A stretch of 64,000 nt of DNA, taken from Tequatrovirus BCH953P4. The position numbers were made by a program, and so were the translations under genes. Of the stretch, positions 42,865-51,525 are shown one piece after another (position 1 is the first letter of the stretch; each line of letters begins with the position of its first letter). The notes below the pieces were generated by a model, which saw only the letters and a program-made list of their open reading frames with translations, was not told the origin of the DNA and made no database searches. The stretch is from the sequence record OZ035789.1. The stretch is one strand, 5' to 3'.

Positions 42865-43338
42865 TTATTTGAATGATTTAACGTACTGAATAGAACCTTT
42901 ACTATTCACAAAGGCAATTTTACCATTTTTGTTATACATGGTAGCAGTACGCTGATAGCCATAAGTTTGTTTACCAGATTGATAACCAACTAATGCAAAA
43001 TTATCTTCACCCATTTTATTCTGTTTAGCGCGAATGCGTTCATGACCATGTGCCATAAGAACCTTAGCATCACCAGTTGCAATGGATCTACGAGTTTTTT
43101 CATCTTCAACTGTATTAACAAAGTCGTCAAATGAATCAAATTTAGCATGAGATTTATTATACAGTTTTCCATCTACTGCATAATTATATCCCTGTACATC
43201 CATCTCAACTTCTGTACCATCATCCAATACAGCAGTGATTTTTTGACCTTTTTTAAATTTCAAAAGATCAGTAAAAGATTCAGCAATAATTTGAGAATTA
43301 ATAGCTGCTTCAGTGATAAATTCTTGATATGTTTTCAT
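42865..43338 (-). CDS. capsid internal protein with N-terminal capsid-targeting sequence (IPII/IPIII-like)
   Basis: 157 aa; N-terminus MKTYQEFITEA matches the T4 internal-protein targeting consensus. Confidence 0.7.
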   Translation of the reverse strand: MKTYQEFITEAAINSQIIAESFTDLLKFKKGQKITAVLDDGTEVEMDVQGYNYAVDGKLYNKSHAKFDSFDDFVNTVEDEKTRRSIATGDAKVLMAHGHERIRAKQNKMGEDNFALVGYQSGKQTYGYQRTATMYNKNGKIAFVNSKGSIQYVKSFK

Positions 43339-43347
43339 ATGTTTCCT

Positions 43348-43764
43348 TTAAATGTAAATATTTTTACCGTAATACTTATACCAATGTGGTTTCATTAAAA
43401 TTTTTTCATCAAGTCGTTGTTGACTCAATTTAATAGCTGATTTGCATGGATTATAATCATTTTTCCATTCTACTGGAATATCGCTGATGTCAGGAACTTC
43501 AGTATCTTTTATACTGAACCCTCGTTTTAAGCATTCCGTTATAATGTCCGATTGACGCTTTCGCAAAAATTCTAACTTATCGTAAAAGAAAGTAACATGA
43601 CCAGAACCTAAAATAAATTTAGAAGATATTTTAAAATCTTTAACGCGCTTACCATTTGCCACATGCTTACGAACTATACCAAAAACACGTGGCAATTCAC
43701 GATATTCTGCGATTAAATGTTGATCAGCAAGTTCAGATACTAAAGTCAAATTAATACGAGTCAT
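43348..43764 (-). CDS. denV: endonuclease V (pyrimidine dimer DNA glycosylase)
   Basis: 138 aa; closely matches recalled T4 endo V ([17 protein letters not shown]...). Confidence 0.9.
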
Positions 43765-43783
43765 TTTATCCCTCCAAGTAACT

Positions 43784-43820
43784 GTGAATATACTATCACA
43801 ATTCTAGGAGAAAGTAAACA
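43784..43820 (-). promoter_or_regulatory. early-type promoter upstream of denV
   Basis: tatactatc ... agtaaaca element. Confidence 0.5.
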
Positions 43821-43823
43821 ACT

Positions 43824-44318
43824 TTATAGATTTTTATACGCGTCCCAAGTGCCAGTTCTAAACGTTGCAATGACTCGTTTTGCGCGATTAGGTGTTTGAT
43901 TATACCATCTACTTTTAGCTAAGTTAACTGCTGCTTCATCCCAGCGTTTTTGTTGAAGCATACGCAAAGAGTTAGTGAATCCAGCTACGCCAGTTTCTCC
44001 CATTTGGAAAACCATATTAATCAATGCACAGCGACGAACAGCATCAAGAGAATCATAAACTGGTTTTAATTTAGCATTTCTCAAAATTCCACGAACAGCA
44101 GCATCAACATCCTGGTTAAAGAGTTTTTCAGCCTCATCTTTTGTAATTACGCCATTGCAATTACGCCCAATAGCTTTATCTAATTCAGATTTAGCAACAC
44201 TTAATGATGGACTTTTAGTAAGCAAATGACCAATGCCAATAGTGTAATAGCCTTCTGTGTCTTTATAGATTTTAAGTCTAAGACCTTCATCTATACGTAA
44301 CATTTCAAATATATTCAT
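43824..44318 (-). CDS. e: lysozyme (endolysin)
   Basis: 164 aa; near-identical to T4 lysozyme including Cys54 and Cys97; a few substitutions. Confidence 0.95.
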
Positions 44319-44332
44319 AATACCTCCTAAGT

Positions 44333-44352
44333 ATTTATAGAAGGTATTTATA
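44333..44352 (-). promoter_or_regulatory. two tandem late promoters (TATAAATA on the minus strand) upstream of e
   Basis: plus strand shows tatttata at 44333..44340 and 44345..44352; GGAGG Shine-Dalgarno precedes the e start. Confidence 0.55.
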
Positions 44353-44355
44353 AAA

Positions 44356-44811
44356 TTAAAAAAGGTTGTTCATTATTCGGTAAAGTGAAGGACCCATCAC
44401 ATATTGCCACTGAGTACGAGGAATAAGAGCAAAAGCATCCATCTCTGGAATCATAACACCATCTTTATTTTCAAAATAAGACTCACAATAGCAATTTCTG
44501 AACATCTCATGCTCTACTGGAATCGCATAATAAAATAGCTGTAAGTCTTTATTACTAGAATATTTAAATACACCTAGGTCTTCTAGAAGGTCTGGATTAT
44601 AATTGCTAAAACCGGTCTCTTCTAAACATTCTCTTCGTGCTGCATCTAGTGCACTTAAATCAGAATTTTCTACACGGCCCTTTGGAATATCCCAGCGATG
44701 TGCCATCATTCCAGGCTTACGAGAACCAGTAACCCGACCCATAAATAAATCTTTATCTTCTGTCATGAAGATAATACCAGCTGATAATGTTTTCATTTTA
44801 ATTTCCTGCAA
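44356..44811 (-). CDS. nudE: Nudix hydrolase
   Basis: 151 aa; Nudix box around [10 protein letters not shown]; position immediately upstream of e. Confidence 0.8.
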
Positions 44812-45092
44812 TCACTCACAAACTCTTTCATTGATTCATTTTCAATATAAGACATGTAGCTATTATATTCTTTTAATTGTATTTTGTAATCCTTTTTTCT
44901 TTGCCAATTTATTTTAAAATTATCATAATGAAAATATAACATGGTACCAAAGAATGAAAATAATGAAATAATTTTAGTATAGTGAAGTTCACTCCAAACT
45001 TCTGTTATATTTACTGTGCCGTCGATGTTTAAAATAAGACAGTCAATTAACAATCCAAAAAGACTACCCGCAAGAGCTGCAGCCAACGCCAC
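44793..45092 (-). CDS. small membrane protein
   Basis: 99 aa, hydrophobic N-terminal half. Confidence 0.45.
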   Translation of the reverse strand: MALAAALAGSLFGLLIDCLILNIDGTVNITEVWSELHYTKIISLFSFFGTMLYFHYDNFKINWQRKKDYKIQLKEYNSYMSYIENESMKEFVSDCRKLK

Positions 45093-49607: not shown

Positions 49608-49694
49608 TGGTACGAGAAGTGGGACTCGAACCCACAAGGAAATCATTCCGCAGCATTTTAAGTGCTGTGCCTTTACCAATTTGACCATTCTCGC
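49608..49694 (-). tRNA. tRNA-Leu (UAA), long variable arm, CCA encoded
   Basis: anticodon stem-loop CAGCA-CUUAAAA-UGCUG, long extra arm, T-arm GGUUCGAGUCC, 3' ACCA. Confidence 0.85.
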
Positions 49695-49695
49695 G

Positions 49696-49768
49696 CTGGG
49701 AATAAAGGACTCGAACCTTTGCATCTAGCAGTCAAAGTGCTATGCCTTACCAACTTGGCTAATTCCCA
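49696..49768 (-). tRNA. tRNA-Gln (UUG)
   Basis: acceptor UGGGAAU/AUUCCCA, anticodon stem-loop UAGCA-CUUUGAC-UGCUA, T-arm GGUUCGAGUCC. Confidence 0.85.
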
Positions 49769-49854
49769 ATTATTAACAAAGGCTCTCTAACAAGAACCCT
49801 TGATGATAGAGGGTATTAATCAGTGCGATATGAATTAATAATAACAAATAATTC

Positions 49855-50379
49855 TTAAAGCAAATTAAACATTTTAACGGTCGGCAAAACAATTTCTTCT
49901 TCTATATAAGAGTATTTAACACTCTCAACTACACGCAAAAAATCATAATCATAATACTCAGAAGCATTACCTAAAATATTAATAAGTCCTTCAAGCACTT
50001 TATTACCATTCACAAAGAATAAGTCAAATACACGTTCTTCATCTTCTTCAGATTTATTACCAAGATCAACTTCTATGCGAAAGACCTTTTTAATGAATTC
50101 TGGATAAAGCTGGTCTGAGAACAGTCCTTCAACCAAGTATTCATAAATAAAAAGAGATTGCTCGCTGAACAAACCATTACCACAATAGCGCTCAATTTTA
50201 GTACTAGAATATCTGCTTTTAAACTTCTTTAAAAGATACTGAAATTGTAAGATTTCATGCTCTTCTACGCCAAACAGTGTTTTAGTTTTATAGTTGTCAC
50301 CATCATTTTCCCAGGTAGTGACATCAATTACGTAGCCCTGCGGAATTGTAGTACCTAAACAAATATTCATTTTCACCAC
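49855..50379 (-). CDS. hypothetical protein
   Basis: 174 aa ORF upstream of the tRNA cluster. Confidence 0.55.
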   Translation of the reverse strand: MVKMNICLGTTIPQGYVIDVTTWENDGDNYKTKTLFGVEEHEILQFQYLLKKFKSRYSSTKIERYCGNGLFSEQSLFIYEYLVEGLFSDQLYPEFIKKVFRIEVDLGNKSEEDEERVFDLFFVNGNKVLEGLINILGNASEYYDYDFLRVVESVKYSYIEEEIVLPTVKMFNLL

Positions 50380-50663
50380 GCTGCATTAATGTAAGTATAT
50401 TTAATACATCCAAGACCCAAAGGATTCTTGAAAATATCATATTCAAGAGGACCTTTTTCTGTTTCAATAAAGAAATCAAAATTTACTGTATTAAATGCAC
50501 GGTCTTCCTTTACTAATTTAACTTGAGAAGATGAACGGTCAATGTAAACCTTTTCAACTTCAAAACATGTTAAAACGCCATAATCATCAATCAAGGCTTT
50601 AGCTGCGTCTTGATCATATTTATATCCATTTTCAATGGATGATACTTTAGCATAAAGAATCAT
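50373..50663 (-). CDS. hypothetical protein
   Basis: 96 aa ORF. Confidence 0.5.
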   Translation of the reverse strand: MILYAKVSSIENGYKYDQDAAKALIDDYGVLTCFEVEKVYIDRSSSQVKLVKEDRAFNTVNFDFFIETEKGPLEYDIFKNPLGLGCIKYTYINAAW

Positions 50664-50665
50664 TA

Positions 50666-51085
50666 TCAGCCTTCATCAACAATAGTATGAGTGTGGGCAT
50701 TTACAATTTGCCACCAATCAAAGCGATTAGAACCATACATCGGTTTGTTTTCATTTTCTTTGATAATATCACGGAGTTCATCTTCGGTAGCGGCTTTCGC
50801 GATTAAATCAGCATATCCACCACGAGGATAATAATTATCACCTGCAAAAAGTAAAAAGTTTGGTTTAATATTATTAAACTCTTCAAGAGTAATAACTGTT
50901 CCACCAGGTTGAACAATCTCTACATAACTATATCCTAATTTTTGAGCAGCATCTACTGCTTCAAGCAGGGTATCATGAGCCCATCCAATTTGGCAATCTG
51001 GCTTTTCAGATGGATTAGCCTGATAATCCGCGTACACTTTATACATTCTATTCACCTTTAGAAATTTTATCCATAACGATAGCAA
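50666..51085 (-). CDS. hypothetical protein
   Basis: 139 aa ORF. Confidence 0.55.
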   Translation of the reverse strand: MLSLWIKFLKVNRMYKVYADYQANPSEKPDCQIGWAHDTLLEAVDAAQKLGYSYVEIVQPGGTVITLEEFNNIKPNFLLFAGDNYYPRGGYADLIAKAATEDELRDIIKENENKPMYGSNRFDWWQIVNAHTHTIVDEG

Positions 51086-51233
51086 TTAAACCAATTAAAA
51101 ATGCTACTACAAGTGAAAAAACATTTTCTGCTGTAGTCAATAATCCGCATATAAATCCAACAAACATTGAAAAACTAAAAGCGGAAGCAGAAATTGCAAT
51201 AGCAACATTTCGAATTAATTCACAACGTTTCAT
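51048..51233 (-). CDS. small membrane protein
   Basis: 61 aa, almost entirely hydrophobic. Confidence 0.45.
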   Translation of the reverse strand: MKRCELIRNVAIAISASAFSFSMFVGFICGLLTTAENVFSLVVAFLIGLIAIVMDKISKGE

Positions 51234-51291
51234 TTTATTCTCCTCAGTAGTTGATAGGGTAATAGTATCACTACCCTATCTAAAAGTAAAC

Positions 51292-51525
51292 TTATTTTTT
51301 ACGAAAAATTGATTTATTTTCTGCTGCCCATTTTTCAATAACTGCAGCCGGACCAGTAACAACAATTTTATCACCGTAATCTTCTGCGGCGAGTTGACCG
51401 AAATTATCTAATGCATCACGAAGAACTCCATGAGGCATTTCACCCATTTTATCTTTCTTGCCAGTGTAAATAAACTCAACTTTTACATCAGAAGATTCAG
51501 CGATAAATTCTTTAAACGTTTTCAT
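51292..51525 (-). CDS. small capsid internal protein with N-terminal targeting sequence at the ipI locus (not T4 IPI)
   Basis: 77 aa; N-terminus MKTFKEFIAES; location between the tRNA region and 57B. Confidence 0.65.
   Translation of the reverse strand: MKTFKEFIAESSDVKVEFIYTGKKDKMGEMPHGVLRDALDNFGQLAAEDYGDKIVVTGPAAVIEKWAAENKSIFRKK

Follow-up and report, generated by a model that had tools for sequence, protein, structure and literature searches.

This work concerns a stretch of DNA of 64,000 nucleotides (nt) from Tequatrovirus BCH953P4 (sequence record OZ035789.1), referred to below as the window, and three genes within it whose products begin with the capsid targeting sequence (CTS) of the internal proteins (Ips) of T-even phages. 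These genes very likely constitute the polymorphic Ip set of a T-even phage, with products that are packaged by means of the CTS and then injected into the host, and with one of them, the 77-amino-acid (aa) protein Ip6, acting to counter the restriction enzyme McrBC. This protein is encoded at the ipI locus and, as judged from its sequence, it is a member of the Ip6 family and not IPI. The observation is correct, but it is not new: polymorphism at the ip loci was described in 1994, the Ip6 family has been named in GenBank for years, and the function of a near-identical Ip6 ortholog is already in the 2025 literature. The Ip names themselves reportedly originate with Repoila et al. in 1994.

Three genes with a capsid targeting sequence

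A megablast search with window positions 42000-52500 returned 1132 phage records, 281 of them with at least 80% query coverage, and the best matches all belong to Tequatrovirus (T4-like) phages, with Escherichia, Shigella, and Yersinia as their hosts; on the evidence of its sequence, the window is Tequatrovirus DNA. The gene order on the minus strand is that of T4, namely gene 1, 57A, 57B, the ipI locus, trna.4, the tRNAs, segB, rnaC, e.8 and, further on, nudE, e, denV, and vs.8. The three genes with a CTS, all on the minus strand, are the following:

51292..51525, minus strand: ip6, encoding an internal protein of 77 aa; at the ipI locus, with 57B on one side and trna.4 on the other; CTS MKTFKEFIAE
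47542..48015, minus strand: the phrog_2280 gene, encoding a protein of 157 aa; CTS MKSYTQFLNE; candidate gp21 cuts after E10 and E15
42865..43338, minus strand: ip4, encoding the 157-aa Ip4, 9 nt after the denV stop; CTS MKTYQEFITE; second L/I-x-E site after E20

Two of them occupy the known ip loci, with the Ip6 gene between 57B and trna.4 and the Ip4 gene beside denV, while the phrog_2280 gene is found at a third site, between rnaC and e.8. The original prediction had placed three internal-protein genes at positions 42865, 47542, and 51292; the open reading frames (ORFs) are real, but these positions are the stop-codon ends of minus-strand genes and not their starts. The N-termini that it quoted are confirmed, namely MKTFKEFIAES (51525..51292), MKSYTQFLNEA (48015..47542), and MKTYQEFITEA (43338..42865), and the assignment to internal proteins is supported: phrog_8111 (Ip6) and phrog_3155/DUF7412 (Ip4) are already internal virion families, and the phrog_2280 gene has both the signal and a late promoter.

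The CTS was searched for in six frames of the whole window with the regular expression M[KR][ST][YF]x[EQDK]F[ILVM]xE, which gave exactly three matches, each at the start codon of an ORF, compared to 0.0004 expected from the amino acid composition and to none in 200 shuffles. Mutagenesis of the IPIII CTS has assigned targeting to residues 4 (aromatic) and 7 (Phe), and processing to residues 8 (I/L) and 10 (Glu), and the prohead protease, gp21, is known to cleave after L/I-x-E (PMC9026906). All three ORFs have Y or F at position 4, F at 7, I or L at 8, and E at 10, and the L/I-x-E motif at E10 is accompanied by extra sites at E15 in the phrog_2280 protein and at E20 in Ip4.

The protein at the ipI locus

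The 77-aa protein matches phrog_8111, annotated as "internal virion protein", over residues 1-77 of 77 (3.3e-51), and tblastn finds it in 245 phage records, where the label is in many cases internal (core) protein and in some ip6 or ipVI. Its identity is 72.7% to the ip6 product of VR7 and 94.8% to that of fFiEco06, and VR7 Ip6 is also the top Foldseek match (TM 0.88). The predicted gp21 cut after Glu10 would release a mature form of 67 aa and 7.4 kDa, with an isoelectric point (pI) of about 6.5 and a net charge of 0. Among Ip6 alleles that are otherwise 73-95% identical, the CTS residues M1, K2, E6, F7, I8, and E10 do not vary, which suggests that selection maintains the signal.

The proposal that the protein at the ipI locus is not T4 IPI is borne out by sequence comparison. 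The BLASTP alignment with T4 IPI covers residues 1-14 only, and the Pfam profile IPI_T4 (PF11634), which detects T4 IPI itself at 7e-54, has no match to the 77-aa protein even at E <= 1; taken together, these two results rule out its identification as IPI. In addition, IPI* is not among the 60 best structural matches of the Ip6 model. This AlphaFold model (pLDDT 81) is a small beta-alpha-beta-beta-alpha-beta, ferredoxin-like domain, with structural neighbours that are generic only and give no hint of how McrBC would be inhibited.

Regarding relatives, a HMMER search of mature Ip6 against 1.84 billion representative proteins retrieved none beyond its own small family, a match to an NHL-repeat protein in this search being spurious; the sequence profile search of the PDB was without match, and no meaningful match came from NCBIfam or PADLOC. 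Other T4-like genera have, at this locus, a looser set of proteins of 68-78 aa that has a GPxxxI(E/D)xW motif and the predicted fold in common.

Ip6 and the restriction enzyme McrBC

The functional reading of Ip6 comes from phage Bas37 (KarlGJung, MZ501089), whose protein Bas37_0260 is identical to Ip6 at 73 of 77 residues (95%), and at 100% of residues 13-77. Both proteins are 77 aa long and both are encoded next to a trna.4 homolog. From this identity, equal length, and same position, it follows that the window protein is the ortholog of an McrBC counter-defence factor of the internal-protein type. In a HIDEN-SEQ preprint of November 2025, the bas37_0260 knockout is reported to be "specifically sensitive to McrBC" (E. 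coli K-12), and disruption of the gene caused a strong fitness loss on K-12 BW25113 and none on a strain without McrA, McrBC, and Mrr (bioRxiv 10.1101/2025.11.20.689424). In the same study, bas37_0260 insertions were about 37-fold depleted, with mean counts of 8.4 on K-12 BW25113 compared to ~305-309 on clinical isolates (log2 about 5, q = 0), whereas no depletion of the mutants was seen in those uropathogenic strains that were tested.

By extension from experiments with T4 IPIII, each of the three proteins would be tethered by its 10-residue CTS to the scaffolding core of the prohead, the gp21 prohead protease would cut after Glu10 at I/L-x-E, and the mature protein would stay in the head with the DNA, to be injected at the next infection. 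Going by the ortholog, the injected 67-residue Ip6 would then most likely block the host type IV enzyme McrBC before the incoming hydroxymethylcytosine (hmC) DNA is cut.

Ips have been described in reviews as diverse defence proteins with only the CTS in common (PMC3012670), and T4 Ip1, Ip2, and Ip3 each inhibit a distinct variant of GmrSD, a type IV enzyme, with high specificity (PMC12373910). Since all three T4 Ips act on GmrSD subtypes and the gene is found at the ipI locus, the 77-aa protein could be thought to inhibit a GmrSD-type enzyme, either instead of or besides McrBC. We regard this as improbable, given that Ip6 has no similarity to IPI in sequence or fold, that the phenotype of the Bas37 knockout is specific to McrBC, with no depletion in the uropathogenic strains, and that the known Ips are each highly specific. 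The suggestion that the 77-aa protein is an alternative injected anti-defence factor is supported insofar as its 95%-identical ortholog, Bas37_0260, is required against McrBC rather than GmrSD; the injection is something that we infer. The plating on GmrSD hosts proposed in the original prediction would probably have a negative outcome, because McrBC is the demonstrated target of the ortholog.

Promoters and cassettes at the ipI locus

The ip6 gene is bracketed by two predicted regulatory elements of the promoter-early stem-loop (PeSL) type:

51545..51585, minus strand: early promoter in a stem-loop (PeSL-type, predicted), upstream of ip6; GTTTAC-N18-TACTAT, stem GATGAGG/CTCATC
51251..51291, minus strand: second PeSL-type promoter/stem-loop (predicted), directly 3' of ip6 and before the trna.4 homolog; stem GATAGGG/CCCTATC

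The downstream copy is a direct repeat of the upstream one, with 78% identity, and the 100 nt upstream of ip6 are almost identical to the region upstream of T4 ipI. PeSL cassettes have been proposed to drive modular gene shuffling and were first noticed at the IP locus (PMC4122927; Arbiol 2010; Comeau 2014). In the window, the 5' end of ip6 (51500-51620) is chimeric, because the promoter/stem-loop, the ribosome-binding site, and codons 1-7 (MKTFKEF) match T4 ipI and bas37_0261, whereas the body of the gene matches bas37_0260. This looks like the loss of a bas37_0261-like first gene by recombination between repeated PeSL/CTS sequences, as far as the sequence can tell. Cassettes bounded by repeated regulatory hairpins, either PeSL elements or terminators, explain how Ip genes are swapped between related phages.

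The locus is variable in other phages. In a census of IMG/VR that covered 36 loci downstream of 57B, each locus had 0-3 CTS ORFs, and these fell into 14 sequence families. T2 has two different CTS genes at the ipI locus, and Escherichia phage DK-13 (Gaprivervirus) has five consecutive CTS ORFs there, one of which is a distant relative of Ip6 (~41% identity). Moreover, the HIDEN-SEQ table shows a significant depletion, in one clinical strain, of bas37_0261 (85 aa, MKTFKEFATKTTITES...) and of the 57B homolog next to it (log2 -2.1 and -1.6, in this order), which hints at another host-specific Ip function; bas37_0261 has no counterpart in the window.

Glucosylation context

Two genes of the window are involved in the glucosylation of its DNA:

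1329..2171, minus strand: ba-gt, T2/T6-type beta-alpha-glucosyltransferase of 280 aa (Pfam TAGT, TAGT-like fold), at the position of T4 b-gt
15482..16705, minus strand: a-gt, DNA alpha-glucosyltransferase (Pfam AGT PF11440, 4e-237)

Accordingly, a-gt is present, the T4-type b-gt is replaced by ba-gt, and the latter is 99% identical to the ba-gt of Bas37, bas37_0154. In T2 and T6 DNA, part of the hmC is left unglucosylated, and unglucosylated hmC is a substrate of McrBC; that glucosylation of the T2/T6 type has this effect is said to go back to Lehman and Pratt in 1960. An McrBC role of Ip6 fits a phage with a-gt and ba-gt, because part of the hmC is unglucosylated in such phages. The gentiobiosyl fractions of T2 and T6 DNA are given in PMC6024577.

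The co-occurrence of ip6 with the two types of glucosyltransferase was assessed in GenBank phages by means of megablast with chimeric queries, IMG/VR having only 5 ba-gt loci, too few for this purpose. Both ip6 and ba-gt were found together in 215 GenBank phage records (478 records, 693 places), and ip6 with the T4-type b-gt in 0 (249 records, 249 places), a difference that is hardly discriminating because ba-gt is the majority state, carried by ~95% of the Tequatrovirus records with either glucosyltransferase, and because most records with b-gt are derivatives of T4. The co-occurrence is compatible with the McrBC rationale.

The 157-aa protein of phrog_2280

The second gene, 48015..47542, matches phrog_2280, a family of "unknown function" (1.8e-60), and its product is found in 510 phage records, as "hypothetical" in all 40 rows among the matches listed; it is 99% identical to bas37_0244. 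The elements that surround the gene are the following:

48056..48063, minus strand: TATAAATA, the consensus of T4 late promoters, with the ATG of the phrog_2280 gene 41 nt downstream; it straddles the upstream cassette junction
48061..48096, minus strand: terminator hairpin after rnaC, at the upstream edge of the inserted cassette
47502..47537, minus strand: duplicate terminator hairpin with inverted stem-loop core, at the downstream edge of the cassette, after which the sequence continues as in T4

Compared to T4, this unit of promoter, gene, and terminator (47502-48096) is inserted exactly at the rnaC terminator. The two copies of the terminator are 83% identical when aligned as a direct repeat, and their core is 96% complementary. 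In the annotation of phage fPS-90, made independently, the homologous gene likewise has a predicted late promoter and predicted terminators.

The AlphaFold model of the protein (pLDDT 75) is all-helical and consists of an N-terminal three-helix domain, a linker rich in Lys, Pro, and Ala, and a C-terminal helical hairpin; structural matches are only generic helical hairpins. In T4-like relatives of Klebsiella and Yersinia, the CTS and the N-terminal domain are kept, while the C-terminal half is different, and the N-terminal signal of such distant relatives, with the C-terminal domain replaced, reads MKFKEFLAE or MLEYSEFLKE.

These features bear on whether the ORF encodes an ordinary late protein with an N-terminus that is merely CTS-like, as might be thought given that 5/10 CTS residues are identical to the IPIII CTS, that 0 of the 40 listed rows (510 records) mention an internal protein, and that the gene is outside the two classical ip loci. 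Such an explanation appears rather unlikely: the four mapped CTS positions and the L-x-E site are kept, the signal is conserved even where the C-terminal domain has been replaced, a late promoter is present, and the neighbouring gene in Bas37 and fPS-90, bas37_0243, encodes a protein that starts with MKTYAEFLTEA. This start, beside the phrog_2280 ortholog, points to a third ip locus. As for bas37_0243 itself, this CTS protein has 187 aa (MKTYAEFLTEA...), the window is without a copy, and in HIDEN-SEQ the gene is rated essential (1 of 48 TA sites hit), a surprising rating if its product is an internal protein.

Tentatively, and with somewhat more doubt than confidence, the phrog_2280 protein may be an unrecognised injected effector that combines a conserved N-terminal domain (residues ~18-71, from Tequatrovirus to the Klebsiella and Yersinia phages) with an exchangeable C-terminal domain. 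If this is true, the variable C-terminal domain would track a host defence or a takeover target, and the rnaC-e.8 site, with its further gene bas37_0243 in other phages, would amount to a third ip locus.

Ip4 and neighbouring features

The third protein, Ip4, matches Pfam DUF7412 (PF24183) over residues 1-157 (5.7e-96) and phrog_3155, annotated as "internal virion protein" (6e-102). It is 100% identical to a protein of T2, and is labelled ipIV or Ip4 in phages Kha5h and ime09. The window lacks the ipII and ipIII genes of T4, so that e is next to denV, while ip4 flanks denV on its opposite side. A comparison with Bas37 shows ip4 to be cleanly inserted directly after denV, as a piece of about 0.5 kb with no obvious flanking repeat. 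Both Ip4 and the phrog_2280 protein are basic (pI 9.1-9.6), and both are probably additional factors that are injected.

Between ip4 and the vs.8 homolog, a GC-rich piece of about 140 nt (42713-42850) is 100% conserved in Bas37 and absent from T4; Rfam does not recognise it, and its folding gives no signal (z = 0). Elsewhere in the region, Rfam recognises eight tRNAs at window positions 48413-49768, and a GIY-YIG homing endonuclease, a segB homolog (48490-49155), is found within the tRNA cluster, as in T4.

Weight of the evidence

Several points weigh against the reading of the three genes as a packaged and injected Ip set in which Ip6 counters McrBC. The McrBC result comes from one preprint on one phage, and it describes a genetic requirement rather than direct inhibition (bioRxiv 10.1101/2025.11.20.689424). 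For Ip6, Ip4, and the phrog_2280 protein, the searchable literature yielded neither proteomic data on virions nor N-terminal sequences or reports of injection, and it yielded no usable papers on the virion proteomics of fPS-90 and fHe-Yen9-01; the packaging of the three proteins is predicted from the CTS. Mature Ip6 is neutral (pI 6.5, net charge 0), whereas the T4 IPs are basic (pI 9.0-9.7). No late promoter TATAAATA is found within 1.1 kb upstream of ip6, where the adjacent one is of the early type only. To these points have to be added the weakness of the ip6/ba-gt co-occurrence and the behaviour of bas37_0244, which showed no conditional phenotype in one HIDEN-SEQ comparison.

The promoter, in particular, could be taken to mean that Ip6 counters McrBC as a cytoplasmic protein that is expressed early, like T4 Arn, and is not packaged, its CTS-like N-terminus being a leftover of cassette shuffling. 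Besides the fact that GTTTAC-N18-TACTAT is the sole promoter directly upstream and that the distance to the closest TATAAATA, which is within gene 1, is 1.1 kb in the upstream direction, this explanation draws on the recombinant look of the 5' end, codons 1-7 included, and on the genetic nature of the HIDEN-SEQ evidence, which has packaging outside its scope. We nevertheless consider it very improbable, because T4 ipI, the product of which is a well-known head protein (PMC9026906), shares the upstream region of ip6, and because the CTS residues are invariant in Ip6 alleles that have diverged to 73% identity. Furthermore, the best answer to a restriction enzyme that acts on DNA as it enters is an inhibitor that is made beforehand and injected, as is IPI.

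The charge of the proteins, in turn, is relevant to an explanation in which all three serve the packed DNA only, as structural or charge-neutralising fillers, and play no part in anti-defence. The T4 IPs are abundant and basic and touch DNA phosphates (PMC3012670), and the basic character of Ip4 and the phrog_2280 protein would be in line with this, as would the lack of a conditional phenotype for bas37_0244 in that one comparison. The neutral charge of mature Ip6 and the defence-specific phenotype of its ortholog speak to the contrary, as do the genes themselves, which are non-essential and are present or absent among close relatives, a pattern typical of accessory counter-defence genes, and we consider fillers very improbable. 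Packaging and injection of a polymorphic Ip set, with Ip6 directed to McrBC, is thus the reading that we retain.

Significance

No phage product reaches the host cell before the injected Ips, and they decide the survival of modified T-even DNA when it is confronted with type IV restriction. For this reason, the Ip repertoire of a phage, which consists here of Ip6, linked to McrBC, of Ip4, and of an unnamed third protein, helps to predict the host range of therapeutic T4-like phages. The window adds no new principle and illustrates cleanly, at three sites, how cassettes are exchanged; it also draws attention to two Ip families, those of Ip4 and phrog_2280, of which the 157-aa phrog_2280 protein is the least explored.

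Comparison with known systems

The closest known system is that of Bas37_0260, with which Ip6 shares its length of 77 aa, its locus upstream of a trna.4 homolog, 73 of 77 residues, and a genetic background with a 99% identical ba-gt. They differ in their initial residues (MKTFKEFIAESS versus MKTYQEFIAETA) and in the arrangement of the locus, because bas37_0260 is the second of two genes and follows bas37_0261, whereas ip6 is alone in the window and has the promoter and the first seven codons that are typical of the first gene.

T4 IPI resembles Ip6 in the 57B-trna.4 locus, the near-identical promoter/stem-loop, the first seven residues (MKTFKEF), and a similar size, and also in function, since the Ip6 ortholog likewise has a role against a modification-dependent restriction enzyme. 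However, Ip6 is unrelated to IPI after residue 14, its propeptide would have 10 residues instead of 19, and it is neutral instead of basic; moreover, the fold of IPI* (PMC3012670) differs from the beta-alpha-beta-beta-alpha-beta, ferredoxin-like one predicted for Ip6, and the target of IPI is GmrS/GmrD while that of the Ip6 ortholog is McrBC.

Once injected, T4 IPII and IPIII inhibit the GmrSD variants that ECOR21 and ECOR17 carry (Silas et al. 2025). Their CTS, MKTYQEFIAE, is close to that of Ip4 (MKTYQEFITE), the predicted processing is alike, and ip4 is in the denV-e neighbourhood; the mature parts are unrelated, belong to separate PHROG families, and give no cross-hits beyond the CTS. Finally, with regard to PeSL cassettes, ip6 conforms to the type in being bracketed by two predicted early promoters in stem-loops, whereas the phrog_2280 cassette is bracketed by terminator hairpins and has a late promoter, and the ip4 cassette is without an obvious flanking repeat.

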